From NCBI GenBank assembly GCA_041665345.1, contig JBAYJA010000001.1, positions 329,206 through 393,205 on the forward strand: a DNA stretch of 64,000 nucleotides, in the 5' to 3' direction. The stretch's first letter is position 1. Every line of letters starts with the position of its first letter. This document shows, piece by piece, positions 3,420-64,000 of the stretch. Source of the stretch: Patescibacteria group bacterium (GTDB lineage: Bacteria > Patescibacteriota > Patescibacteriia > PEXW01). A program made the translations under genes and the position numbers. The notes under the pieces were generated by a model. It saw only the letters and a list, made by a program, of their open reading frames with translations. It had not been told where the DNA came from and ran no database searches.

Positions 3420-3788
3420 ATGGATGATCTTCAACCTGTCCAATCTTTACCAAAAAAGAGACATCTGCTCCGCTTACTATTCCTCAGTATTCTTGGAGTT
3501 GTTTGTATTGCCGCATTGCTGGGGGTAATGTATTGGAAGGATGTTTTTCCTTTCAACCTGCGCAATAGCATAGATGTAACAATTTTTGGTTTTGGGAATA
3601 ATCAAGAAATATCGACAACTTTGGGCTTAGGTGAAACAACGTGTAGTTTTTTACAAGGCGTTAGTCCCACATCACCAGTAACAACTTTTGATATTCAGGC
3701 ACAGTACGGCACAATTGGACCCAATGAATGCAGTGATAAGAACAAATTTTGCGTGCCAGGATGCGTGGCTTCGTTGGTTCAGCAGTAG
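3420..3788 (+). CDS. small membrane-anchored protein; possibly continues in another frame to 3934 (frameshift?)
   Basis: Starts 12 nt after heliorhodopsin stop; N-terminal TM (LLFLSILGVVCIAALLGV). A second frame is open 3737-3934 and its stop overlaps the start of the next gene (GTGA). Confidence 0.45.
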   Translation: MDDLQPVQSLPKKRHLLRLLFLSILGVVCIAALLGVMYWKDVFPFNLRNSIDVTIFGFGNNQEISTTLGLGETTCSFLQGVSPTSPVTTFDIQAQYGTIGPNECSDKNKFCVPGCVASLVQQ

Positions 3789-3930
3789 TAACACAAAATG
3801 AATTTGTCCATCCTTTCAAGTACACGGCACCTATGGAAATGCCGGCATCTGGTAGCGATACAGTACAAGTAGTGCTCCAAGATGAACGCGGCCATGAAGT
3901 ACGTCGGGAGTTAACTGTGCAGTTGCAGCA

Positions 3931-4569
3931 GTGAATTTTCCTACAAAACTCAGCCGGTACCCTGCGGCCGGGGTAACCACACTCCCGATACTCATCGGGG
4001 GTGCACCCTGCGCTGGGAAATCGACGCTGGCAAAAGCCCTTGCCACTGAACGTGGTTGTGAAGTTGGGCACGTCGATGATTTGAGCGACGCCTTCAAGAC
4101 GGCCAAGGAAAATGAACGCCATAAGTACCCGTGGATGTTTTCGACGTACAAAACTACGGCGGAAGAATTTTGGGAAAATCGAACACCACGTGATCTCATT
4201 GCGGTTGAAGTTGCTCAGGCGAAGGAGTACTGGCCAGAACTCAAAAGAGTTATGCAAACCGGGACGTTTGGAATTCTGGAAGGTGTCTCTATCTTGCCAG
4301 AACTTGTGTGGAAGGAGTTTGGAGCTGCTATCCGTATGGTTGTCCTTATTGATACGGATTTATTGAGAGTGCGGCAGACAATCTTTACCCGGGGGATTTG
4401 GGACGATGCCAACACCTACAGTGACTGGGTGAAAGAGAAAGAGTTAGAGTGGGTGGAATTGCACAACGCTTGGTTTCGGGAGCAAGCAAAAAAGTATCCT
4501 TACCCACTTTTTGAAGTAGGGGATCGGGGACAACTACTTGAGCAAGCAAAGACATACTTTGCTGGATGA
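3931..4569 (+). CDS. P-loop kinase/ATPase (2-phosphoglycerate-kinase-like / AAA_33-like)
   Basis: Walker A ILIGGAPCAGKST followed by ...HVDDL...; GTG start overlapping the upstream stop. Confidence 0.45.
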   Translation: MNFPTKLSRYPAAGVTTLPILIGGAPCAGKSTLAKALATERGCEVGHVDDLSDAFKTAKENERHKYPWMFSTYKTTAEEFWENRTPRDLIAVEVAQAKEYWPELKRVMQTGTFGILEGVSILPELVWKEFGAAIRMVVLIDTDLLRVRQTIFTRGIWDDANTYSDWVKEKELEWVELHNAWFREQAKKYPYPLFEVGDRGQLLEQAKTYFAG

Positions 4570-28006: not shown

Positions 28007-28627
28007 ATGGAAACGAAAATGATAACCACCGGCGCGGCCTTCCGCTACGGCTGGGAAACGCTCAAGAAGGATTTCTGGTACTTCATTGGGATCTCCGTGT
28101 TGTACGGAGTCATCACCAATATTCCAAATTCTAAAGGGACCAGAAGTGGTTTTAGCATCCTCGGCATTTTCATCAGCGCTTGGCTTATGGGCGGCCTGTA
28201 CCGCCTGTTGCTTGACTACAAAGACGGCAAGAAGCAAGAGTTTAGCGTTCTGTTCACTCAGTTGAAGCACTACTGGCGGATTTTGGGCGGTTCAATTTTG
28301 GTGGGGCTCATTGTCATTGGTGGGCTCATCCTCCTGATTGTGCCCGGCATCATCTGGGGTTTGCGCTACATGTTCACCATCATGCTCATCGTGGACAAAA
28401 ACATGGATGTTGGAACGGCCATGCACGCCAGTGCGGAAATGACCCGGGGGATTAAAGGCAAACTCTTCGTCTTCGCTTTGGCCTGCCTTGGCACCATGGT
28501 CCTGGGTGTCATCTGCTTGGGTGTGGGTGTGTTTGTGGCCATGCCCGTGGTGTGGTTGGCTTTCGTCTACCTGTACCGCAGTCTGCCAAACACCAACGCG
28601 GTGCAAGTCCAAGAGCCAACAGTTTAA
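28007..28627 (+). CDS. polytopic membrane protein (DUF975-like)
   Basis: 206 aa, about 5 TM, pattern similar to DUF975 integral membrane proteins. Confidence 0.45.
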   Translation: METKMITTGAAFRYGWETLKKDFWYFIGISVLYGVITNIPNSKGTRSGFSILGIFISAWLMGGLYRLLLDYKDGKKQEFSVLFTQLKHYWRILGGSILVGLIVIGGLILLIVPGIIWGLRYMFTIMLIVDKNMDVGTAMHASAEMTRGIKGKLFVFALACLGTMVLGVICLGVGVFVAMPVVWLAFVYLYRSLPNTNAVQVQEPTV

Positions 28628-28645
28628 ATTTTTAACGATTCGCAA

Positions 28646-28669
28646 AACCCGCAGCAGTGCGGGTTTTTG
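28646..28669 (+). terminator. rho-independent terminator
   Basis: cccgca-gcag-tgcggg followed by TTTTT. Confidence 0.75.
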
Positions 28670-28702
28670 CTTTGTAGCGAGTAGAAGCCGTGGTGCCACT
28701 AT

Positions 28703-28730
28703 TGACACATTCTCGATTGTGTGTAGAATT
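28703..28730 (+). promoter_or_regulatory. sigma70-like promoter TTGACA-N16-TAGAAT
   Basis: Consensus hexamers about 30 nt upstream of the ATG at 28762. Confidence 0.55.
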
Positions 28731-28761
28731 GGTATCAACAAAACATTTGGAGGAAAAAAGA

Positions 28762-28974
28762 ATGTTAAATCGGATCATTTTCATCATCATTGTTACAGCT
28801 CTTGCGCTCATTCCCACCTGGTTCTTTCTCCTCTTGCGGAGCATCGCCAATCCTACAGGATTCTGGCAGAACATCGTCACGTTTGGAGTAGGCATCTGGT
28901 TACTTGGAGGATTGCAGCTCATCTTCCTTGTTGTAGGGGTATTTGTCCTCTTCGCTGGGCTGTCCAAAAACTAA
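28762..28974 (+). CDS. small 2-TM membrane protein
   Basis: GGAGG RBS; 70 aa hydrophobic. Confidence 0.5.
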   Translation: MLNRIIFIIIVTALALIPTWFFLLLRSIANPTGFWQNIVTFGVGIWLLGGLQLIFLVVGVFVLFAGLSKN

Positions 28975-28984
28975 TCTCAACGTA

Positions 28985-29017
28985 GACCGGCAGAAATGTC
29001 GGTCTTTTCTTATTTTT
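28985..29017 (+). terminator. rho-independent terminator
   Basis: gaccggcag-aaa-tgtcggtc hairpin followed by a T-rich run. Confidence 0.7.
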
Positions 29018-29048
29018 GCATTTTCACCAGGGAGCGTACACTGGCTGC

Positions 29049-29714
29049 ATGACCCAGCGCAGAATACATCAAGACGAGTGCCCGTACTTCGTCACCTTCA
29101 ACACGCGGGGAGGGGAGCCGGTGTTTGAAGATGTGCGATTTGCAAAGTTACTCCAGGAGGAAATGTTTACCTCGGCCAGGTTGAAGGGTTTTGATATCTT
29201 GGCATACCAAATAATACCAAACCACGTTCACCTTTTAACCGGCACGCGCACGTTGGAGGAGGATGGTAAAAATATTGTTGGTGGTGATGCACCCACCTCC
29301 GAGGTTGATCCCGTCCCCGTCGAGCGCACGCTTGAGAGCATGCGCTCGGGGGAATTTAAAAGGATTGATAATAATAATTTCCCCGAACCCACTCCGATTC
29401 ACGAACGCGCCTCCCTTGAACGCGCCTCCCCCGAGCGTACCTTCTCTAAGGTGCGCTCGTCCCCGGCGCGTACACCCAAGCCATTCACCATCTCCGACCT
29501 TATACAATCCATCAAAGGGAATTTCTCATACAAGCACAAACTTGGAGCAATTTGGCAACGCCGGTTCTACACTAAAATCGTTAATACCCCGGAGTATTTG
29601 GAAACCGTGGTGGAGTACATCCGCTACAATCCCACCAAAGACGGTTTACCCAAACGTTTCACCCAACCGCCGTACCAATATTTTGATTGGGGGAAGATTC
29701 GGAAGTTGTTTTAA
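29049..29714 (+). CDS. IS200/IS605-like HUH tyrosine transposase (REP-associated tyrosine transposase-like) with an internal low-complexity insertion
   Basis: YFVTFNTRGG..., HUH motif NHVHLL, catalytic-Tyr region AIWQRRFY; about 60-aa insert (ERASLERASPERTFSKVRSSP...) between the motifs, encoded by a tandem repeat plus a palindrome. Confidence 0.65.
   Translation: MTQRRIHQDECPYFVTFNTRGGEPVFEDVRFAKLLQEEMFTSARLKGFDILAYQIIPNHVHLLTGTRTLEEDGKNIVGGDAPTSEVDPVPVERTLESMRSGEFKRIDNNNFPEPTPIHERASLERASPERTFSKVRSSPARTPKPFTISDLIQSIKGNFSYKHKLGAIWQRRFYTKIVNTPEYLETVVEYIRYNPTKDGLPKRFTQPPYQYFDWGKIRKLF
29403..29430 (+). repeat. tandem direct repeat (2 x gaacgcgcctccc) inside the transposase ORF
   Basis: 13-nt unit at 29403-29415 and 29418-29430. 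Confidence 0.8.
29432..29458 (+). repeat. REP-like imperfect palindrome, copy 1 (inside the transposase ORF)
   Basis: cgagcgtacctt-ctct-aaggtgcgctc; 27 nt identical to 29779-29805. Confidence 0.8.
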
Positions 29715-29778
29715 GTCCATTTAATGCATAACAAGCGCAAGTTTGGTCATAACAGTGTAAACGGTGAAAATAATTCCT

Positions 29779-29805
29779 CGAGCGTACCTTCTCTAAGGTG
29801 CGCTC
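29779..29805 (+). repeat. REP-like imperfect palindrome, copy 2 (downstream of the transposase)
   Basis: Exact 27-nt match to 29432-29458. Confidence 0.8.
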
Positions 29806-29837
29806 ACCCAAGTTTATATTATTCATTGTTAATGAAA

Positions 29838-29870
29838 AATGCTCTCCCCGAAGAGAGAGCATTACTTTTT
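29838..29870 (+). terminator. bidirectional hairpin terminator
   Basis: aatgctctc-cccgaa-gagagcatt 9-bp stem followed by ACTTTTT; on the minus strand followed by TTTCATT. Confidence 0.6.
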
Positions 29871-30285
29871 AGAGCATTTTCATTACCGCTTGAATTGCGT
29901 ACTCAATGAATTCTGGTTTTGGGTTACCACTGGTATAGATTGCTGCAGAACGGTCACACTGGCTGCCGTCGATATTATCCCAATCTTGTGACCACGGCAT
30001 GAGGACAAGAACCGTGCGTTTCCAGAACAAGATGCCGGTTTCAAACCAAAAGGTTGCAAACCAGTAGTAACCGTCACTTGTGGTTAGTCCAAGGGGAATA
30101 TCCATGATCGTACTCGCAGTTCCCCTGTAATGTGGGAGCCGCTTGCAGCGGATACGGAGGTCATCCTGGTTTAGTAGTGCGCGATTTGGGTCAGCCAGTT
30201 TCTCGTTAAACTTTTCAATGATCGGCGGGAAAAATGGACCATCGAATTTTTGCAGTTTTGCTTTAGCGTGCCTTCTTTTACTCAT
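29869..30285 (-). CDS. hypothetical protein
   Basis: AAAGGAG RBS before the internal ATG (ORF open to 30318); no recognised domain. Confidence 0.45.
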   Translation of the reverse strand: MSKRRHAKAKLQKFDGPFFPPIIEKFNEKLADPNRALLNQDDLRIRCKRLPHYRGTASTIMDIPLGLTTSDGYYWFATFWFETGILFWKRTVLVLMPWSQDWDNIDGSQCDRSAAIYTSGNPKPEFIEYAIQAVMKML

Positions 30286-30402
30286 ATTTACTCCTTTGTG
30301 TGTATTTTTAATAGCCAATCGTAAATCAGAACTTGCTTTTTGTCAAGCCGCGCGCCAGATCAATAGTTTGGCCACCATGCAGTAGCCCTTTGCAACAAAG
30401 TA

Positions 30403-30430
30403 AACCCCGAGCATCTTGCCCGGGGTTTTT
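30403..30430 (+). terminator. orphan plus-strand terminator (possible small-RNA 3' end)
   Basis: ccccgagca-tctt-gcccgggg hairpin plus TTTTT with no plus-strand CDS upstream. Confidence 0.4.
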
Positions 30431-30450
30431 GTATGCATCGGAAGCAATTT

Positions 30451-30480
30451 AGAAATAAAAAAGCGCTGGTAACAGCGCTT
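30451..30480 (-). terminator. terminator for the minus-strand gene 30497-30829
   Basis: aagcgctg-gtaa-cagcgctt hairpin with a T-run on the minus strand. Confidence 0.7.
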
Positions 30481-30496
30481 TAGGTTTTGTCGTACT

Positions 30497-30829
30497 TCAT
30501 TTGCTTGTAGATCGAAGCATGGTAACGAACATGAGTCGTTCATCTGCCACCCCGCCGTAGTGTTCCGCGACGAGCGCCCTGAGCTTTTCTCGTTGGTAAG
30601 TTGTGGGCAGATGCTGCACGGCAATGGACCGCAGGTGACAGCTCAAGCAAACGTGGATGTACACATTACCGCACGTCTGTAGCTCTTCGGGCAGCTCCTC
30701 TTTGAGGAATGCGCGGGTGGAGTCGCTGCTCCCTTTGTGGTTGCAAAACGGGCAACCGGATGTGTTGAGGGTCTTCCCAGTGACGATTTTTGTACTTCCG
30801 GGGGCGAAACGTATGTTATGAATATCCAT
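30497..30829 (-). CDS. zinc-finger / HNH-like small protein
   Basis: CPFCNH ... CGNVYIHVCLSCH cysteine/histidine clusters; tentative. Confidence 0.35.
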   Translation of the reverse strand: MDIHNIRFAPGSTKIVTGKTLNTSGCPFCNHKGSSDSTRAFLKEELPEELQTCGNVYIHVCLSCHLRSIAVQHLPTTYQREKLRALVAEHYGGVADERLMFVTMLRSTSK

Positions 30830-31662: not shown

Positions 31663-31769
31663 TTTCCCTCCAAATTTCTTAGGATCAATTTTGGCTTCAC
31701 CTTAGGCAGGGCAGGAGAGATTGTCAATGGCTGGTGCCCTACATTTTTCCAGGTTGCTAGAATACCCCC

Positions 31770-31797
31770 ATGCCCCTCCTGGAAACCCTGAACCAAC
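31770..31797 (+). repeat. remnant copy A of the helicase gene 5' end (atgcccct...aaccctgaacc)
   Basis: Shares atgcccct and aaccctgaacc with the helicase start at 33407 and the upstream aataccccc context with copy B. Confidence 0.6.
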
Positions 31798-31872
31798 CAA
31801 GGTTTAGGATTTAGATGAAAAGTTAACCCCACACAAGTACTGTGCGGGGTTAAGGTACTGACAGGAATGCAT

Positions 31873-32163
31873 TTACTTTGTTCCGAAGTACACACTGTTG
31901 TAGTTCGGGGACAAGTCGGCGTTCAGGCCTGGAACGAATTTTTCCCCTCCATTCAGGCCGGTATGGAAGAAGCGGAAGCCGTTTGCTTCATCGGTAACGG
32001 TGAGTTCGCCTGCCACCGGGGAGATAATGGCGGTTTTGCCCGTGGAAAATCTTCCTCTACTGTCACGCTTCTGCGTGAAGTGGTGTTTTCCAAGTTCCAC
32101 GAGTTCACAATGAAGTGGGCACTGTTGCGCGATTTTGGACCAGGACATGAAATTACAATCCAT
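31873..32163 (-). CDS. hypothetical protein inside the inserted segment
   Basis: GGAGG RBS on the minus strand; 96 aa (ORF open to 32214). Confidence 0.4.
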   Translation of the reverse strand: MDCNFMSWSKIAQQCPLHCELVELGKHHFTQKRDSRGRFSTGKTAIISPVAGELTVTDEANGFRFFHTGLNGGEKFVPGLNADLSPNYNSVYFGTK

Positions 32164-32269
32164 TTTAAACCTCCAGTTTGTTTTACCTTTTTGCAATGGC
32201 TTAATGTAGCACATTTCTGTTTCTTGTCAAGTCTTGGCTCTTGTATGCGGAACCTCCTACAATACCCCC

Positions 32270-32352
32270 ATGCCCCTTCTGCCAACTCTCAACCCTGCCC
32301 AAAAGCAAGCGATAACCCACACGGCTGGGCCGCATTTGATTGTGGCTGGCGC
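32270..32352 (+). repeat. duplicated copy B of the helicase gene 5' end (about 83 nt)
   Basis: atgccccttctgccaactctcaaccctgcccaaaagcaagcgataacccacacggctgggccgcatttgattgtggctggcgcggg is near-identical to 33407-33489. Confidence 0.85.
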
Positions 32353-32460
32353 GGGGTGCTCAGTTGGTAATGAGGAGGTTTACCTGGTTTGCATTTGACA
32401 TTATTTTGTAGGTGTGGCAAAGTCTTAGGTCTTCATGTATACTCAAGTACATATTAAGAA

Positions 32461-32667
32461 ATGAGCAAAAATATGGAAAAGGGAACGGAGAAACAATTAT
32501 TTACGGCTATTAAAATAGCCCGTAAGCAACTTTCTGAACTTAGTGTACATCAACGATCAACTCTAGAAAAAACTTGGGATATTGAGCATGCATATTATTC
32601 AAGCACGCTTGAAGGAAGTAAGCTGGATCGATCAGAGTTCAATCGGCTTGGTGAAGAGGTTCAATGA
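32461..32667 (+). CDS. FicA/VbhA-like antitoxin carrying the Fic inhibitory motif
   Basis: 68 aa containing SSTLEG, which fits the (S/T)xxxE(G/N) inhibitory-helix motif; stop overlaps the Fic start (ATGA). Confidence 0.55.
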   Translation: MSKNMEKGTEKQLFTAIKIARKQLSELSVHQRSTLEKTWDIEHAYYSSTLEGSKLDRSEFNRLGEEVQ

Positions 32668-33344
32668 TGGTAAGTTCTGATTTTCGTCGTCCACTAGACG
32701 AGGAAGAACTTCAAAAACGATCAGCGCTTGGAGTAATCCGAGCGTCACGTTTTATTAGAAAATTTGCTCACCAGCATCAACCGATAAACGTTGATGTATT
32801 TTGTGAAATACACAAGAAAATTTTTTTTGATGTGTGGCCTGAAATAGCGGGAACATACAGGCGTGAAAATTTAGAAATCACAGATTCTAAGCTTGTGCTA
32901 CCCCATTATTCAGAAGTTCCTCAATTAATGCACAAAATGAACGAAGACCTAAAGGACAAATTATCCTCCTTAGGCCAGGTTGAAGGAATTATAAATACCT
33001 CTAAAACACATACTGAAGATGAGGAAAAAATAATTGAAGCAACCGAACATGTTATTGGAGTTGCAGCTTGGGCGCATCATCGTATTACCTATATTCACCC
33101 TTTCCGAGAGGGGAATGGTAGAACAGGAAGGTTAGCCGCAAATTTGATTCTAGAAAGGTATGGGCTGGTTGGTATTTCGGTAAAGGTTGAAAAGGAAAAC
33201 AAAAATCGATATCGGAAAGCTTTAGCACAGATTGATGCGGAAAGTGATTATGAACCTTTGATAAGTATTATTTATGAAGGCTTGATTGACCGATATCAAG
33301 GGGTGAGTATTAAGTACTATGAGTATAAGGGAAAGACTCGGTAA
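32664..33344 (+). CDS. Fic-family protein (class I FicT-like AMPylator/toxin)
   Basis: Canonical Fic motif HPFREGNGRTGR; 226 aa without an inhibitory helix of its own. Confidence 0.8.
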   Translation: MMVSSDFRRPLDEEELQKRSALGVIRASRFIRKFAHQHQPINVDVFCEIHKKIFFDVWPEIAGTYRRENLEITDSKLVLPHYSEVPQLMHKMNEDLKDKLSSLGQVEGIINTSKTHTEDEEKIIEATEHVIGVAAWAHHRITYIHPFREGNGRTGRLAANLILERYGLVGISVKVEKENKNRYRKALAQIDAESDYEPLISIIYEGLIDRYQGVSIKYYEYKGKTR

Positions 33345-33406
33345 ACGGATTTTTTAAGACAGAAATAGAATTAGTACATCTGTGAGCAGATTGGTAGACT
33401 AGCATT

Positions 33407-36400
33407 ATGCCCCTGTTGCCAACCCTGAACCCTGCCCAAAAGCAAGCGATAACCCACACGGCTGGGCCGCTTTTGATTGTGGCAGGCGCGGGCACGGGCA
33501 AGACGACGGTGGTGACCCAGCGCATTGCCTGGCTCATTACCGAGCAGAAGGTCAAGCCGGACCACATTCTGGCCCTCACCTTCACGGACAAGGCGGCTGG
33601 GGAAATGGAGGAGCGGGTGGACAAGCTGCTGCCCATGGGCTACGTGGATTTGTGGGTGAGCACGTTCCACAGCTATTGCGAGCGGGTGCTGCGGGACCAC
33701 GCCTTGGATATTGGTCTGAGCCCGGACTTCACTTTGCTGGATGAAACTGACCAAGCGATTCTGATGCGGGAGAATTTGGAGAAGTTTGAACTCAACTACT
33801 ACCGACCGCTGGGCAATCCCACCAAATTTGTGACGAGTTTGATTTCCCATTTTTCACGGTGCAAGGATGAAGCTATTCGACCTGAGGAATACTTGAAGTT
33901 TGCGGAGAAGGTGAAACTTGATTTGGATCAGGTGCATGGCCGCAAAAAGAAATCAGAGGATGATGCCGCGCAGATAGTAGAAGCGGAGAGGATAAACGAA
34001 GTAGCAAATGCGTATCATACATATCAACAGTTATTGTTTGAAAAAAGCTGCTTGGATTTTGGTGACCTTATCACACAGACGCTGTATCTGTTCCAGCAGC
34101 GGCCAAAGATTTTGCAGCGGTACCAGGAGCAGTTCCAGTACGTGCTGGTGGATGAATTCCAAGACACCAACTGGGCGCAGTACGAGCTGGTGAAGATGCT
34201 GGCCGCGCCCAAGAACAATTTGACCGTGGTGGGGGATGATGACCAGAGCATTTACAAATTCCGTGGCGCCAGCGTGGCCAACATTCTGGCGTTCAAGAAA
34301 GACTACCCCAAGGCAAAGGAAGTGGTGCTGACTGAAAATTACCGCAGCACGCAGAACATTCTGGATTTGGCGTATAAATTTATCCAGCACAATAATCCGA
34401 ATCGATTGGAAGTACAGATGCAGAGCCGTAAAGCCGTAAGCCGTAGAGCTGTAAGTTCTGAGGGGAAGAAGGGACAGGGGATAAGTAAAAAACTCGTCGC
34501 ACAGTCAGAAGACACTGGCGAAATTGGGGTGTGGCAAATGCCGACGTTGGAGCAGGAGGCGAGTGCGGTGGTGGAAAAAATAATCGAACTTAAGAAAAAA
34601 AATGCTGAGAGCTCGTACAATGATTTTGCCGTGCTGGTGCGCGCCAATGACCATGCCACGCCGTTTCTGCAGCGGCTAAAGGCGGCAAATGTGCCGTTCC
34701 AGTTTTTGGCCTCGGCTGGGCTGTACCGCCAACCAATTATTTTGGACATTCTGAATTACCTGAAGCTCTTGGACAACTACCACGAGACTGCGAGCTTGTA
34801 CCGGATTCTCACCTTGCCCTTGCTAGCCATTCCTTTGCCAGATGTGATGCACATGCTGGCAGTGGCCAAGCGGGAAACCAAGTCCTTGTTCGACATTACT
34901 AAGCAAGCGCGGGCGCTCACCAGTTTGCAGCCGGCCACCATTGCATCGGTGGAAATTTTGCACGGGTGGTTGGAAGCGCACAGCCAGCTGGCGCGCACGC
35001 AGCCAGTGGGGGAAGTCACCCTGAAGTTCTTGGAAGACTCCGGCATGCTGCAGCAAATTACCGGCACCACGGATGCGGAGCATTTGGAGCAGGTGGGTTT
35101 TGTGAACCAGCTCTTCCAAGTGTTCCACAGTTTCCAGAGCCGGCACGCAGACCCTACGGTGGCTAATTTTTTGCGGGAGCTGGCTTTTGCCCAGGATGCT
35201 GGCGATGCTGGAACACTCAAGCCCCCGGAATGGGAGCAGGGGCCAGAGGCCGTGAAAGTCATGACTGTGCACGGGGCTAAGGGCTTGGAATTTCCGTACG
35301 TGTTCATTGTGAATTTAGTGGACAAGCGTTTCCCAACCGTGGAGCGGCGCGAACCCATTGCCATACCAGATCCGCTGGTGCGAGAAAAAGTACCGGAGGG
35401 GGACTGGCATGTGCAGGAAGAGCGCCGGTTGTTTTACGTGGGTATCACCCGGGCCAAGCGCGGCGTCTTCTTCCTGATGGCGGAGGACTACGGCGGCAGT
35501 CGAAAGAAAAAGCCTTCGCGTTTCATTCCAGAACTCGGAGTGCAGATTGTGTCGAAGCAGGTCCAAGGCAAACTCACCGAAGCACCCACGCAAGCACCGG
35601 GCCGCGTGGATGATGATCACGCCTTGCTGCGCCAGGCCATTCCGGCGGCATTCAGCTTCACACAAATTAAAGCGTTTGAAAATTGCCCTAAGCAGTACAA
35701 GTACGCGCACCTGCTGAAAATCCCGGTGCCGGGCCACGCGTCTTTAAGCTTTGGCCAAACCATCCACAACACTTTGCTCAACTTCTTCAAACTGGCGCGG
35801 GAGCGGAGCATCACTGGCCAAGCAGATTTGTTTGGGACCAAGCCAACGGTCGCGTCAGACAAGCCAGCTGTGAGTTGGGCTGAGCTGCAAGAGTTGTACA
35901 AAGCCGCGTGGATTGACCAGTGGTATGCGAATGTGAAGCAGAAGCAGGAGTACAAGCAGCGCGGCGTGCAGTTTCTCAAAAACTTCTACGACAGTTTGCC
36001 CACGCCCTGGCCGCAGCCTGTGGAACTGGAAAAAGGTTTTACCATTGCCATTGGCGGGCACAAACTACGCGGAAAAATTGACCGCATTGACCCAGCCAGT
36101 GGGGGCATTGCCATTCTGGATTACAAGACCAGCGAGAAACCGCCAACGGATCCAAGCAAAGCAGACCTGGAGCAGCTTCACCTGTACGCCATTGCCGCGC
36201 GGGAAGCCCTGGGCAAAAATCCGGTGAGCTTATCGTACATCTACCTAGCCACGGACAAACCCTACACCTACCCAATTGATGAGGCAGCCATTGCGAAAAC
36301 TAAGGCCAAGGTGGAGGGGACCATTGCCGCAATCCTGGCTAGTAACTTCAAAGCCACCCCAGCCAAGCACATTTGCGACCACTGTGATTTCCGGAATATT

Positions 36401-36424
36401 TGCGAGGATCGGTGGCGGGGATGA
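33407..36424 (+). CDS. UvrD/PcrA-type helicase fused to a C-terminal PD-(D/E)xK Cas4/AddB-like nuclease (AddA/RecB-like)
   Basis: N-terminal LNPAQKQAITHTAGPLLIVAGAGTGKTT (helicase motif I), further UvrD motifs, C-terminal ILDYKTSEKP...HLYAIAA...CDHCDFRNIC (nuclease with Cys cluster). Confidence 0.85.
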   Translation: MPLLPTLNPAQKQAITHTAGPLLIVAGAGTGKTTVVTQRIAWLITEQKVKPDHILALTFTDKAAGEMEERVDKLLPMGYVDLWVSTFHSYCERVLRDHALDIGLSPDFTLLDETDQAILMRENLEKFELNYYRPLGNPTKFVTSLISHFSRCKDEAIRPEEYLKFAEKVKLDLDQVHGRKKKSEDDAAQIVEAERINEVANAYHTYQQLLFEKSCLDFGDLITQTLYLFQQRPKILQRYQEQFQYVLVDEFQDTNWAQYELVKMLAAPKNNLTVVGDDDQSIYKFRGASVANILAFKKDYPKAKEVVLTENYRSTQNILDLAYKFIQHNNPNRLEVQMQSRKAVSRRAVSSEGKKGQGISKKLVAQSEDTGEIGVWQMPTLEQEASAVVEKIIELKKKNAESSYNDFAVLVRANDHATPFLQRLKAANVPFQFLASAGLYRQPIILDILNYLKLLDNYHETASLYRILTLPLLAIPLPDVMHMLAVAKRETKSLFDITKQARALTSLQPATIASVEILHGWLEAHSQLARTQPVGEVTLKFLEDSGMLQQITGTTDAEHLEQVGFVNQLFQVFHSFQSRHADPTVANFLRELAFAQDAGDAGTLKPPEWEQGPEAVKVMTVHGAKGLEFPYVFIVNLVDKRFPTVERREPIAIPDPLVREKVPEGDWHVQEERRLFYVGITRAKRGVFFLMAEDYGGSRKKKPSRFIPELGVQIVSKQVQGKLTEAPTQAPGRVDDDHALLRQAIPAAFSFTQIKAFENCPKQYKYAHLLKIPVPGHASLSFGQTIHNTLLNFFKLARERSITGQADLFGTKPTVASDKPAVSWAELQELYKAAWIDQWYANVKQKQEYKQRGVQFLKNFYDSLPTPWPQPVELEKGFTIAIGGHKLRGKIDRIDPASGGIAILDYKTSEKPPTDPSKADLEQLHLYAIAAREALGKNPVSLSYIYLATDKPYTYPIDEAAIAKTKAKVEGTIAAILASNFKATPAKHICDHCDFRNICEDRWRG

Positions 36425-36653: not shown

Positions 36654-36675
36654 TCAAAGAATAATTATGACAAAG

Positions 36676-36705
36676 TGGGTAGCCCGGGTCCCTTGACCCG
36701 GGCAG
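36676..36705 (+). repeat. 30-nt palindromic repeat, copy 1
   Basis: gtgggtagcccgggtc-cctt-gacccgggca with a perfect 9-bp stem; second copy at 51388. Confidence 0.8.
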
Positions 36706-51323: not shown

Positions 51324-51387
51324 GATGATCGAAACGTGGGTAGCCAAAGCCCTCGCTTTGGCAGTATTGGCGTACGTTTTTTACCAA

Positions 51388-51417
51388 GTGGGTAGCCCGG
51401 GTCCTTTGACCCGGGCA
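51388..51417 (+). repeat. 30-nt palindromic repeat, copy 2
   Basis: gtgggtagcccgggtc-cttt-gacccgggca; differs from copy 1 only in the loop. Confidence 0.8.
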
Positions 51418-61051: not shown

Positions 61052-64000
61052 ATGCCAGAACCAGTCAATCCAGCGCCGCAGAAGCGCGCAACCGCCGTTC
61101 GCACGCAGACCCCAACGAACACGGTTGTTCGGTCGTCGCTCCTCCTCATGACTGTGGCCGCCACGGTGAGTGCTGGCGTTTTGCTGGCCGCTTTGGTCAT
61201 TCAGTCTTTGCCTAAGCGAGTGTTTGAAGTCAAGAAAGTTGCGGCGGTGACGTCGCCTGCGGGGTATGAAGGGAATATTCTCTTGGTGAAATTTGCAGAT
61301 GCAAAATTAACAGACAAGCAACGGCTATCGGCTGTGAATGCCGCCCTGAAAAAGCCTGTGCAATGCACGCGAACGGAGACAGTGCGCGTGCGCCAAGGGT
61401 GGCGAAGAGTGAATAAGCAGGTGGACGTCAGTTACAACTGCACCGTGAAAGTGCAGCGCATGACGCCCGTAGTTCCAGCCAAGGAAGCAAGCACCGTATT
61501 GGCAGCGAACCGAGCAAGCAAAGTTGAGACAGCCGCTGCGAAGACTGCATATGCAACGCTACAACAGTACAGCATTATTACTCTCACCGGGACGCGGGTG
61601 AACGTTCCTTCAGCCATTGCGGTGTTGAAAGCAGCAGGTATTACCGCAGACGCAAATGGTGCCATGGGTATTGCAGCCTTGGCCAGCGATCCACGGGTTA
61701 CCTCAGCCTTGCAGACGTTGGGAGTAAGTGATGCGCAGACAAACGCCTATGGGGTGCAAGGCGATGCAAATGGCGATGGTGGCCTGACCTGGGCTGACCC
61801 AGAAGTGATGGTGCAGTACATCTTCAATGGTGGTGCCGCACCAACGAATCGCACTGGGGCAGATATGAATGCAGACGGTTTGCTGAATATCAGCGACGTT
61901 GTGCAGATGGTGCAGTCCTTGGTTGCCACTATGTCCGCGCCAAATGATTTGACTAGCGATGCGAAAGTGAACATGGATGACGTGCACTTCCTGCAGCGGT
62001 ACATCTTCAGCAATGGTGCGGCGCCAGTTCCCTTGGCAAGCGCAGACTACTCTGCTGATGGACAGGTGAACGTTTCCGATCTCGTGGGGTACGGGGTGTA
62101 CGTGCAAACCCATCCCGCGGCTCCTGTTGCTGCTTGCACCCGGGGTGACGCAAACGCAGATGGAAAAGTTGACCTCGCAGACGTCACAGCAATTTCTGAT
62201 TACATCTTCCAAGGTGCAACGCTGGCTGGTCTGCCTTGCGCTGACGTCAATAGTGATGGCAAGGTGAATATTAGCGACGCGGTTGCATTGGTTGCCTTAC
62301 TCCAAAATCCAGTTGCGACAACGCAAACCAATGGACGTTCTGCAGTACTTGGCGACACAATTCCTGCAACCGACACGCCCACAGATGGTGATCCTGGGTA
62401 CCTCCTGGGTGATGTTGATGCATCGAACCGAGTGAACAGCCAGGATGTCACCGCTCTTCTCAATTACATATTCCAAGGCGCGGCAGCGCCCAGCCCCTTG
62501 GCCCGCGCGGATTTGAATAGTGATGGACTGGTGAACATTTCCGACGGTGTAACACTAACCAATCTGATTTCTGCGAGCCAGAAAAACCGCTGCCAGGTTG
62601 CAGACCTGAACAATGATGGCCAGGTTGACGCGAAAGATCCATCCGTTATTGTTGACTACATTTTCAGTGGCGGGGCTGCTCCTGACACCACGAAAGCGGA
62701 TATTGATAACGATGGCCGCATTACCATAAGTGATGCTGTGGCGCTGACGAACTGCATTCAGCTAGCCGCAGCACCCCTTGCTGATTACAATAAAGTAAAC
62801 ACCAATGGTGCAGGGACGGAATTTTTGTTAGGTGATGCAAACAACAATGGTGCACGGAATTTGGATGATGCACAGTACATCATTGATTACATTTTCAACA
62901 ATGGCTCCGCGCCGGTGCCTATGGAAGCTGGTGACATTGATGGCAACGGGATAGTCAATATTAGCGACGTTGTTGCCTTGGTCAACCTTCTAGATATTCT
63001 GGCCAATAATCCAGCTGACCTGCCCGTGCTCTACGGTGATGCCAACAAAGATGGCGCGGTGGACAGCAAGGATATTGAAGCGCTTACTGCAGCGTTGATT
63101 GCCAAGCAGACAGACGCACAATTGGATGTGAATCGAGATGGGAAAGCCAATATTGTAGACGCCTACTACTTGCCCCAGCTTCTGAATGTTGACGGCGCAT
63201 CAAAGCCATTGCCTGACGTGAATGGTGACGGCAAGGTGAATTTTGGTGATGTGGATTACCTTTTGGCATACATTTTTGCTGGTGGTCCTGCGCCTGCCAA
63301 TATGAGTACGGCTGACGTGAACGGTGATGGTAAGGTGAACATTAGTGATGTTGTCGCAATCACCAATGCGCTGACGCAACAAGGCGTTCTGCAGTACATG
63401 ACCGGTGATGCAAACCGAGACGGACAAGTGACAATGGCTGACGCGCAGTACCTCATTGCCTACATTTTTGCCGGCGGCCCTGCACCAGACCCACTGCTCC
63501 GCGGTGACGTCAGCGGCGATGGCGCGGTGAATATTACGGACGTGGTGATCCTGGTGCAGCGTTTCAACCAAGTTCTCGCACCCGTGGGAACCCCAGAAGC
63601 CTCGGTTGCCGTGCTGGATACGGGCGTGAAAACCAGTGGCACGGTGCTGAAAGCAGCTGCTGTGACCACAAAGGATATCCCCGGTAATAAGAAGGACGAC
63701 GATAAGAACGGGTACGTTGATGATGCGTACGGTTGGAATACCTTGGTGGCTGGTGGCTCCACGATGGATACCAATGGGCACGGTACCACGGTCGCTACGG
63801 CGATTCTCCAAGTCGCACCAAAAGCACAAATTCTGCCGGTCGCAGTATTAGATCGGTCGGGTATGGGTACCTGCTTGTCGGTCGCGCGCGGGCTCATCTA
63901 CGCCACGCAGCAAGGTGCTGACGTCGCCAACATCAGCGCCAGCGGCAAGGGAACCTGCACGCTTCTGAGCGATGTTGCGGTGTACGCGCAAGCGCGAGGC
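61052..64000 (+). CDS. secreted subtilisin-like (S8) serine protease with about nine tandem dockerin-type modules (3' end outside window)
   Basis: N-terminal signal/anchor; repeated modules GDANxDGxVxxxD...YIFxGGAAP...ADxNxDGxVNISDVVAL (paired Ca-binding loops typical of type I dockerins) about 9 times; then S8 catalytic Asp (VAVLDTGV) and His (DTNGHGTTVA) regions; ORF runs off the window. Confidence 0.75.
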   Translation, partial: MPEPVNPAPQKRATAVRTQTPTNTVVRSSLLLMTVAATVSAGVLLAALVIQSLPKRVFEVKKVAAVTSPAGYEGNILLVKFADAKLTDKQRLSAVNAALKKPVQCTRTETVRVRQGWRRVNKQVDVSYNCTVKVQRMTPVVPAKEASTVLAANRASKVETAAAKTAYATLQQYSIITLTGTRVNVPSAIAVLKAAGITADANGAMGIAALASDPRVTSALQTLGVSDAQTNAYGVQGDANGDGGLTWADPEVMVQYIFNGGAAPTNRTGADMNADGLLNISDVVQMVQSLVATMSAPNDLTSDAKVNMDDVHFLQRYIFSNGAAPVPLASADYSADGQVNVSDLVGYGVYVQTHPAAPVAACTRGDANADGKVDLADVTAISDYIFQGATLAGLPCADVNSDGKVNISDAVALVALLQNPVATTQTNGRSAVLGDTIPATDTPTDGDPGYLLGDVDASNRVNSQDVTALLNYIFQGAAAPSPLARADLNSDGLVNISDGVTLTNLISASQKNRCQVADLNNDGQVDAKDPSVIVDYIFSGGAAPDTTKADIDNDGRITISDAVALTNCIQLAAAPLADYNKVNTNGAGTEFLLGDANNNGARNLDDAQYIIDYIFNNGSAPVPMEAGDIDGNGIVNISDVVALVNLLDILANNPADLPVLYGDANKDGAVDSKDIEALTAALIAKQTDAQLDVNRDGKANIVDAYYLPQLLNVDGASKPLPDVNGDGKVNFGDVDYLLAYIFAGGPAPANMSTADVNGDGKVNISDVVAITNALTQQGVLQYMTGDANRDGQVTMADAQYLIAYIFAGGPAPDPLLRGDVSGDGAVNITDVVILVQRFNQVLAPVGTPEASVAVLDTGVKTSGTVLKAAAVTTKDIPGNKKDDDKNGYVDDAYGWNTLVAGGSTMDTNGHGTTVATAILQVAPKAQILPVAVLDRSGMGTCLSVARGLIYATQQGADVANISASGKGTCTLLSDVAVYAQARG

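Follow-up and report, generated by a model that had tools for sequence, protein, structure and literature searches.

The nuclease gene and its product

We analyzed a stretch of 64,000 nucleotides (below, the window) of the 1.07-Mb contig JBAYJA010000001.1 from a Patescibacteria group bacterium (assembly GCA_041665345.1, positions 329,206 to 393,205). It contains a gene for a REP-associated tyrosine transposase (RAYT; REP, repetitive extragenic palindromic sequence) with REP-like hairpins in its reading frame, and a further hairpin copy outside the open reading frame (ORF), as a preliminary description made from the sequence alone had already recognized. We find that an inverted pair of such hairpins is a trait of the whole gene family, that it is under selection as single-stranded DNA (ssDNA), and that the enzyme most likely recognizes or cleaves these hairpins as its own substrates. 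The gene and its motifs are as follows, with Protein Data Bank (PDB) entry 4ER8, the TnpA-REP protein of E. coli, as reference.

29049-29714, + strand: intact gene for a RAYT-type HUH/Y1 nuclease (ATG at 29049, stop codon at 29712-29714, 221 amino acids).
29220-29237, + strand: HUH motif NHVHLL (aa 58-63) in strand beta3, aligned to HMH of 4ER8.
29238-29489, + strand: aa 64-147, the insert of the beta3/alphaC loop, with predicted disorder and encoded mostly by REP-like hairpins, half-sites and spacer (AlphaFold2 (AF2) model, alignment).
29553-29570, + strand: WQRRFY (aa 169-174) in strand beta4, equivalent to W94-W99 of E. coli TnpA-REP and not the site of the catalytic tyrosine.
29613-29633, + strand: EYIRYNP in helix alphaD, with the predicted catalytic tyrosine Y190 (29616-29618), aligned to Y115 in DYIYINP of 4ER8.

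The ATG at 29049 is supported as the true start by the N-terminal sequence MTQRRI, which is conserved in the alignment of relatives. The ENA gene call (P0001, 197 aa) begins 24 codons after the MTQRRI start, and the deposited annotation clips the N-terminal strand (window 29049-29120).

The protein scored 28.2 bits with the Pfam family Y1_Tnp (PF01797), above the gathering threshold of 23, and 76.3 bits with the NCBIfam family REP_Tyr_transpos (NF047646), slightly under the cut-off of 80, the insert splitting the profile match. The score for transpos_IS200 (NF033573) was far below the cut-off (17.7 versus 55 bits). When the family profile was compared with solved structures, 4ER8 was found with an E-value of 1.1e-11, and the best IS200-type chain with 7e-4. 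This profile alignment pairs PNHVHLL with PEHMHCI, IWQRRFY with IWQPRFW (residues 93-99) and EYIRYNP with DYIYINP (Y115). In Foldseek, 4ER8 was again the best PDB match (E-value 1.6e-8, TM 0.68), followed by ISDra2 and IS608 TnpA (best IS200-type E-value 2.5e-5), and all of the top 30 PDB matches were Y1 transposases. The "IS200/RAYT-like HUH transposase" of the preliminary description can, with the Pfam score and 4ER8 as best match in both sequence and fold, be specified as a Y1 HUH enzyme of the RAYT/TnpA-REP type.

The core was modeled confidently by AF2, with pLDDT above 90 and block means of 81-97 for residues 11-70 and 141-220. Strands were predicted at residues 59-66, which carry the HUH motif, and at 169-177, and Y190 sits on a helix spanning residues 181-197. 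Among 26 aligned sequences, H61, Y190, N194 and P195 were invariant and H59 was conserved in at least 90%. The HUH motif NHVHLL had thus been correctly identified from the sequence. The catalytic tyrosine had been sought in WQRRFY, a motif that forms strand beta4 and corresponds to the W94-W99 region with which E. coli TnpA-REP reads the GTAG foot (PMC6006769). We assign it to Y190 instead, because EYIRYNP aligns to Y115 of 4ER8 and Y190 is invariant. From its sequence and predicted structure, the ORF encodes a functional-looking ssDNA nuclease of the RAYT/TnpA-REP type, with the HUH motif and Tyr190. The earlier suggestion of a decaying RAYT does not fit this gene: the ORF is intact, all catalytic motifs are present, and the insert is no sign of decay.

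Where the E. coli enzyme has about 13 residues between the HUH motif and alphaC, this protein has 83. The low-complexity insert noted earlier is real and longer than the 60 aa then given, namely about 80 aa (aa 64-147). The pLDDT was below 50 at residues 72-82, 84-113 and 117-138, and AF2 found no secondary structure over residues 67-147.

Hairpins and half-sites at the locus

The hairpins, the partial sites around them and the downstream boundary of the unit are listed below.

29239-29258, + strand: degenerate half-hairpin CCGGCACGCGCACGTTGGAG, encoding RTLEE; 5' arm and loop without a 3' arm, 75% identical to 29317-29336.
29321-29348, - strand: hairpin H1 (CGAGCGCACGCTTGAGAGCATGCGCTCG), 12-bp stem, loop TGAG on the + strand, CC-foot strand antisense, encoding ERTLESMRS (aa 92-100).
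29403-29432, + strand: tandem repeat of 2 x 15 nt sharing the 13-mer GAACGCGCCTCCC (plus 2 nt), encoding ERASL/ERASP with the frame kept.
29432-29459, + strand: hairpin H2, one T.G wobble in the stem, loop CTCT, 5' CCCC foot, CC-foot strand sense, encoding ERTFSKVRS (aa 129-137).
29458-29475, + strand: additional 5' half-site CGTCCCCGGCGCGTACAC, found by repeat comparison.
29779-29805, + strand: extragenic copy of H2, identical in 27 of 27 nt and in the same orientation, 65 nt past the stop codon and before the terminator.
29838-29863, both directions: intrinsic-terminator-like hairpin, common to the gene and the convergent ORF 29869-30318 (minus strand), marking the downstream boundary of the unit.

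The 26-nt palindrome core GAGCGTACCTTCTCTAAGGTGCGCTC occurs exactly twice in the window, at 29433-29458 and 29780-29805; no further copy was found in the 64 kb with up to three mismatches, and none in 100 shuffles. The two palindrome copies are separated by exactly 320 nt (start-to-start distance 347 nt), so that the exact recurrence of the 27-nt palindrome outside the ORF is as first described. Only one palindrome had been seen within the ORF. The second, H1, is the same element as H2 but inverted, the two being 79% complementary over 33 nt.

The tandem repeat is also as described, with the 13-mer recurring after 15 nt, and resembles the 5' arm and loop of a REP variant, like the hairpin GAACGCGCCTCTCC... 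of one relative (L016; relatives' loci are numbered in this way throughout). A further 15 nt, GTCCCCGGCGCGTAC (29459-29473), are present in the ORF copy of the palindrome and absent from the extragenic copy, and once this half-site is skipped in the ORF copy, ACCCAAG continues both palindromes. An additional RTLxx remnant was present in several of the aligned relatives.

A covariance model was built from the alignment of oriented hairpins described below (alignment A2) and scanned over the window. H1 scored 40.2 bits on the minus versus 21.9 bits on the plus strand, H2 39.8 bits on the plus versus 8.6 bits on the minus strand, and the extragenic copy 36.6 bits on the plus strand (29772-29813); the next best match in the 64 kb reached 13 bits. 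The z-scores for ssDNA folding of the three hairpins ranged from -6.2 to -6.6, with -6.2 for both H2 and the extragenic copy. In all three cases, the foot strand folded more stably as DNA, by 1.2-1.9 kcal/mol (for H1, -18.6 kcal/mol on the minus versus -16.7 on the plus strand).

With respect to the gene, one hairpin copy lies downstream and none upstream, and no other is found within 64 kb. An upstream terminator is located at 28984-29005, and no hairpins were detected in the 43 nt between it and the ATG. An Rfam scan of 28500-30500 gave sub-threshold noise only, and the exact palindrome had 0 matches in viral contigs. The tetranucleotide CGTC was considered as a foot tag and rejected, since it is found ahead of H1 in this window alone and lacks conservation. 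Across the window, cumulative GC skew increases, which weakly suggests that the + strand, the foot strand of H2 and of the extragenic copy, is the lagging-strand template.

In-gene hairpins are a family trait

A first homologue search returned 44 homologues with 33-99% identity, and every one with a named source came from Patescibacteria. A second profile search, intended to connect to the cyanobacterial subclass 2.4 discussed below, gave 153 matches; among the 120 listed, every source-named one was from Patescibacteria, Kerfeldbacteria or Parcubacteria. A tblastn search against plasmids had no match. In the searches done, the clade is so far known only from Patescibacteria.

We fetched 62 loci, which yielded 46 with unique genes and 365 kb of relatives' loci. 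By hairpin scan, nearly all 46 relatives have one or two GC-rich hairpins with 9-14-bp stems at gene nucleotides 195-350, and an inverted hairpin pair is found in the same protein loop in nearly all of the approximately 46 relatives. The insert measured 30-83 aa in 29 intact members, and none of these lacked it. The window insert is the longest (83 aa, versus 30-72 aa in the 28 intact relatives). The hairpin-bearing insert is hence not unique to this protein, a possibility that the preliminary description had left to an alignment: every intact relative examined has one. In the alignment of homologues, conservation within the gap-rich insert is confined to RTLExVRS and ERTFSxVRS, and precisely these peptides are encoded by the two palindromes.

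Hairpins were classified by orientation (R class, including H1, with the CC-foot strand antisense). The order is RY in 26 genes and YR in 6, and 11 genes have a single hairpin. In a neighbor-joining tree of the protein cores, the order switches between sister proteins (YR in L019 and RY in L020; RY in L004 and YR in L013 and L025), so that the pair is conserved but also undergoes turnover. In L024 and L028, a stop codon lies within a hairpin loop.

Two divergent RAYT paralogues of the clade were present per genome in JBAZBR01, JBAZLK01, LCPQ01, JAHIVO01 and JAQTMH01, each with its own in-gene hairpin pair. At L040, the paralogues (1944-2477 and 3757-4398) are 1.3 kb apart. Such pairs differ from the one-copy-per-genome pattern of classical RAYTs.

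Selection acts on the DNA and not on the peptide

We oriented 76 distinct hairpins by loop composition and flanks and aligned them (A2). The alignment gives 5'-CC-[G/C]A[G]CGC-(variable stem)-YTCY-(variable stem)-GCG-N-T as their consensus. The 5' CC, present in 70 of the 76 hairpins and followed by [G/C]A, has no conserved counterpart at the mirror positions on the 3' side.

In A2, 90% of cells were paired, a percentage inflated by the preselection of the hairpins as palindromic. The diversity of compensated stems (GCGCAC, GCGCGGG, GCGCAGG, GCGCAAC) is not built in by such a selection. Double changes occurred in 8 of the 11 pairs and in 155 cells, versus 46 in shuffles. The covariation score of 0.504 (versus 0.193) was equalled by 0 of 500 shuffles and stayed at or below 0.157 in slid controls; sliding the partner by 1-3 columns reduced pairing to 21-50%.

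Two observations at the coding level point in the same direction. In the ERT..VRS subfamily, the residue three codons further on can be predicted from the synonymous third position of the Thr codon, with ACC accompanied by K or R in 13 of 13 cases and ACG by S or N in 16 of 16. Moreover, one hairpin type is read in all three frames, yielding unrelated peptides (ERTLESVRS, SAGRDTRARG, RAQPAVVAR, PRVSAPAV). Since other subfamilies read the hairpin type in other frames and the codon third base covaries, the hairpin-encoded peptide is dictated by the DNA.

Non-Watson-Crick stem pairs on the CC-foot strand were T.G in 34 cases and A.C in one (binomial p = 2e-9). The CC-foot strand is the antisense strand for half of the hairpins, and the T.G pairs divided accordingly, 17 in antisense-foot and 16 in sense-foot hairpins. 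Because the stems covary, all three frames are used and the T.G bias holds where the foot strand is antisense, selection acts on ssDNA and on neither peptide nor mRNA.

Copies outside the genes

Sites matching the covariance model with at least 30 bits were counted by us from the hit table. There were about 75 in approximately 25 kb of target-gene DNA, 14 in approximately 340 kb of flanks, and 2 more in the second RAYT paralogue at L040. As in the window, extragenic copies follow the stop codon closely, at +8 (L001), +16 (L038) and +78 and +125 (L052); another at +24 (L021) scored 28.9 bits, under the 30-bit threshold. In L014, L011, L023, L026, L029 and L030, copies lie kilobases from the gene. 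Extragenic copies in relatives bear the same foot and occur on either strand relative to the RAYT gene. A free-standing inverted doublet was found at L025:7679-7774, and 31 nt of its second arm are identical to the hairpin inside the RAYT gene of L004, which shares one 312-kb contig with the doublet.

Some CC-foot hairpins, both within a RAYT gene and outside genes, hold in their loops a palindrome of a second family (CCTGCCCGCC...GGCGGGCAGG and variants). The sites are L004:3607-3664 (the H1 of the L004 gene), L029:6093-6174, L010:5605-5673, L026:4823-4900 and L020:6074-6145. The second family may be mobile in its own right, with the loop of the CC-foot hairpin as its target.

With dispersed copies, a free doublet, nested palindromes and turnover of orientation, the hairpins have the properties of a low-copy REP/REPIN family (REPIN, a REP doublet forming hairpins). 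The preliminary description had held that its reading would be refuted by a palindrome found at two sites only, together with a protein that does not match Y1 HUH transposases. In the window, the palindrome is indeed confined to two sites; the idea nevertheless stands, because extragenic copies are dispersed in the loci of relatives.

Hairpins of another kind, tagged 5' with GTGGGTAG, lie on the + strand of the window at 36675-36704, 51336-51363 and 51388-51417, each just downstream of a + strand gene. They have covarying stems (CCCGGGTC/GACCCGGG and CCAAAGC/GCTTTGG) and a 3' CA, are shaped like canonical GTAG-tagged REPs, and show no relation to the CC-foot hairpins. No GTGGGTAG-type hairpins were found in the relatives' loci.

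Origin and role of the in-gene hairpins

We favor, with a probability of roughly three in four, the explanation that this is a RAYT-type nuclease gene whose in-frame inverted REP-like pair is kept as ssDNA structures, most likely the substrates of the encoded enzyme. The disordered beta3/alphaC loop is encoded by the hairpin pair, arranged like a REPIN or a BIME (bacterial interspersed mosaic element) doublet and surrounded by partial half-site duplications, with a third, identical hairpin in the 3' flank. The unit kept as ssDNA is a hairpin with a 5' CC foot, an 11-bp imperfect stem GAGCGYAC...GTRCGCTC with T.G wobble, and a YTCY loop. On DNA that is transiently single-stranded, the enzyme would recognize the imperfect stem together with the CC foot and cut nearby. 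TnpA-REP acts likewise on GTAG-tagged REPs. The beta3/alphaC loop would tolerate any in-frame, stop-free reading, elements could persist there in frame, and nuclease and substrate would therefore be inherited together. The frame-preserving 15-nt half-site repeats (29403-29432, 29459-29473) may have arisen by slippage, or by abortive cleavage and rejoining at the 5' arm. The in-gene copies may have a regulatory or a reservoir role.

Several points weigh against this explanation. The connection between protein and hairpins is one that we infer. The GT[AG]G foot that defines canonical REPs is absent from the CC-foot hairpins (0 of 76 foot strands), and the GTGGGTAG-tagged hairpins could be the real REPs of this genome. 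The copies in the window are only three, all at the gene itself, and dispersed copies were seen only in the loci of relatives. The preselection of palindromic hairpins, mentioned above, belongs here as well. Finally, the reading frame is interrupted in 12 of the 46 unique relatives (L005, L007, L014, L016, L024, L026, L027, L028, L036, L038, L040, L056), and part of the family may be decaying. The interrupted frames could be pseudogenes, frameshifting, or errors in the assembly of metagenome-assembled genomes (MAGs) at GC-rich hairpins.

A more far-reaching version of the favored explanation assumes that, in the streamlined and intergenic-poor genomes of Patescibacteria, the nuclease gene itself has become the main refuge of the REP/REPIN lineage. 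The in-frame pair would then be a selected master copy, or a cis site for autoregulation or copy-out, with the enzyme binding or nicking the single-stranded form of its own gene, and the half-site repeats would be scars. We offer this version tentatively and consider it possible rather than probable. If it were true, enzyme and substrate would make up one fused heritable unit.

Among the alternatives, passive insertion fares best. The gene could be decaying or merely tolerant, with genomic REPs inserted repeatedly and passively into a permissive loop without selection, which combines the "insertion" view of Quentin et al. with the notion of a decaying RAYT. The switches of orientation order between sister proteins, the 12 interrupted frames and the predicted disorder and peripheral position of the insert would agree with such a history, and the half-site tandem duplications and nested second palindromes resemble insertion scars. 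However, every intact member has the insert, with a minimum of 30 aa that is just enough for two hairpins, and the hairpin-encoded motifs are its sole conserved islands. In addition, the window ORF is intact with invariant catalytic residues, and the hairpins are always at one loop even though extragenic copies are rare. We therefore regard purely passive insertion as unlikely.

The hairpins might also act as mRNA structures, the in-ORF copies by pausing translation or as RNase targets and the 3' copy by stabilizing the transcript, so that the association with a nuclease would be incidental. REPs in 3' untranslated regions stabilize transcripts, all three copies lie in the predicted transcript upstream of the terminator at 29838-29863, and the wobble in H2 and the 3' copy is G.U-compatible on the sense strand. 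For the R-class half of the hairpins, including H1, the wobble-compatible CC-foot strand is antisense, however (17 T.G versus 1 A.C), leaving C.A mismatches on the mRNA, and a structure that acted in mRNA would not retain such mismatches in half of the cases. The occurrence of extragenic copies on either strand relative to the RAYT gene and the lack of an Rfam family match in 28500-30500 speak against this alternative, too. On account of the antisense-strand wobble bias, we rejected it as the main explanation and assign it a low probability.

Lower still is the probability of an autonomous insertion sequence (IS) of the IS200/IS605 type whose end hairpins resemble the internal ones by chance. 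The protein shares its fold with IS608 and ISDra2 TnpA, and one hairpin does lie downstream of the gene. Such an element would be hard to reconcile with 17.7 bits for transpos_IS200 against a cut-off of 55, a single copy in 64 kb, no tnpB gene, no hairpin between the upstream terminator (28984-29005) and the start codon, and highly divergent paralogues in one MAG. The family score and the missing upstream hairpin led us to reject it.

That ERTLExVRS and ERTFSxVRS form a functional peptide repeat, for example an Arg-rich DNA-binding arm with DNA palindromy as a by-product, is effectively refuted by the frame and codon data and was rejected as scarcely credible: both motifs are conserved in the closest subfamily, but other subfamilies keep the hairpins in other frames with unrelated peptides, a synonymous and a non-synonymous site covary without exception, identical sequences are also present outside genes, and AF2 finds the insert unstructured.

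Other features of the window

The neighbors of the RAYT gene are ordinary chromosomal genes, for an ABC transporter, a hydrolase, a DUF975 membrane protein, a GYD protein, a Fic protein and a UvrD/PD-(D/E)XK helicase-nuclease. The first 40-90 nt of the UvrD/PD-(D/E)XK gene (33407-36424) are present three times, at 31757, 32257 and 33394, with 74-93% identity (window 31757-33492). A 167-aa ORF of unknown function and a Fic/DOC gene lie between these copies, an arrangement that looks like cassettes inserted at the 5' end of the UvrD/PD-(D/E)XK gene with target duplication. Elsewhere, at window positions 61861-63555, seven coding repeats of about 51 nt contain D(V/L)NGDGKVNISDV-like motifs and resemble calcium-binding repeats of the dockerin or EF-hand type.

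Comparison with known systems

In-frame REPs within tnpA-REP genes, generally between HuH and Y, are a hallmark of TnpA-Y1 subclass 2.4 (Quentin, Siguier, Chandler, and Fichant, 2018; PMC6006769). A RAYT carrying its own REP in frame is thus unusual, as the preliminary description had put it, only in a limited sense. Subclass 2.4 is found mostly in Cyanobacteria and Bacteroidetes, and its variable beta3/alphaC insertion with short DNA repeats was modeled as a peripheral extension (PMC6006769). It is equivalent to RAYT group 4, which is common in Cyanobacteria and has flanking 16-mers of low abundance (Bertels et al., 2017; PMC5581495).

The present clade shares with subclass 2.4 the in-frame REP hairpins between HuH and Y in the beta3/alphaC loop, an insert that varies in length and sequence, contains short DNA repeats and is predicted to be peripheral, the lack of a C-terminal extension, and a low repeat copy number. 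The clade may belong to subclass 2.4 or form a subclass of its own. It differs in its CC foot, which replaces GT[AG]G (absent from all 76 foot strands, present on 2 of the 76 opposite strands), in its restriction to Patescibacteria in the searches done, and in a very low number of extragenic copies. W94, Q95 and R104 are conserved in subclass 2.4, and R104 is part of the surface with which E. coli TnpA-REP reads GTAG (PMC6006769). Here W and Q are kept, whereas the R104 equivalent is N (IWQRRFYTKIVNT against IWQPRFWEHAIRN). The pair described here is near-universal, inverted, covarying and strand-asymmetric; covariation, strand asymmetry and universality were not analyzed for subclass 2.4 in PMC6006769.

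E. coli TnpA-REP (YafM, 4ER8), the best match in sequence and fold, has equivalents of the HUH motif, W94, Q95 and Y115 and imperfect GC-rich hairpins in inverted pairs. The equivalents of its W99, E100 and H101 are Tyr, Thr and Lys, however, and the REPs and BIMEs of E. coli are extragenic, GTAG-tagged and number in the hundreds, as opposed to the three copies of this 64-kb window, of which two are coding.

As in the REPIN-RAYT system of Pseudomonas (Bertels and Rainey, 2011; PMC3116915), an inverted REP doublet is the unit, a Y1 nuclease gene is associated with it, and REPs flank the gene, here with a single downstream copy. The Pseudomonas REPINs are extragenic, abundant and flank a single-copy RAYT (PMC3116915), whereas here the doublet is inside the ORF and several MAGs have at least two divergent paralogues.

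In-frame REPs have also been catalogued in other genes (Di Nocera et al., 2013; PMC3733652). Like the Rickettsia palindromic elements (RPE) and the intragenic REPs in repair genes (PMC3733652), the present hairpins are in frame at tolerant coding sites, where such elements add 20-80 residues. The host genes of those elements are unrelated to a presumed nuclease, while in this case the elements sit in the gene for their presumed cognate nuclease, with the insertion fixed throughout the family. With IS200/IS605 TnpA (IS608, ISDra2) the protein shares the HUH/Y1 fold, and ssDNA hairpin recognition is a feature of those enzymes. It differs in scoring below the family cut-off, in the absence of left-end and right-end hairpins bounding the gene, and in not belonging to a multi-copy element.

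With this clade, REP-RAYT biology reaches into the candidate phyla radiation and includes hairpins without the canonical GTAG tag. In-gene REPs of the kind noted in 2018 are shown not to be necessarily occasional insertions; they can be conserved, covarying and strand-specific. The family provides dozens of natural pairs of nuclease variant and hairpin variant in the same gene, a data set for hairpin reading by HUH enzymes and for HUH-tag engineering. For annotators, low-complexity inserts in such "transposase" genes are to be read as DNA elements and not as protein domains. In-gene REPs as such have already been published; compared with the known systems, what is new is a Patescibacteria clade with covarying, strand-specific hairpins that carry a CC foot.

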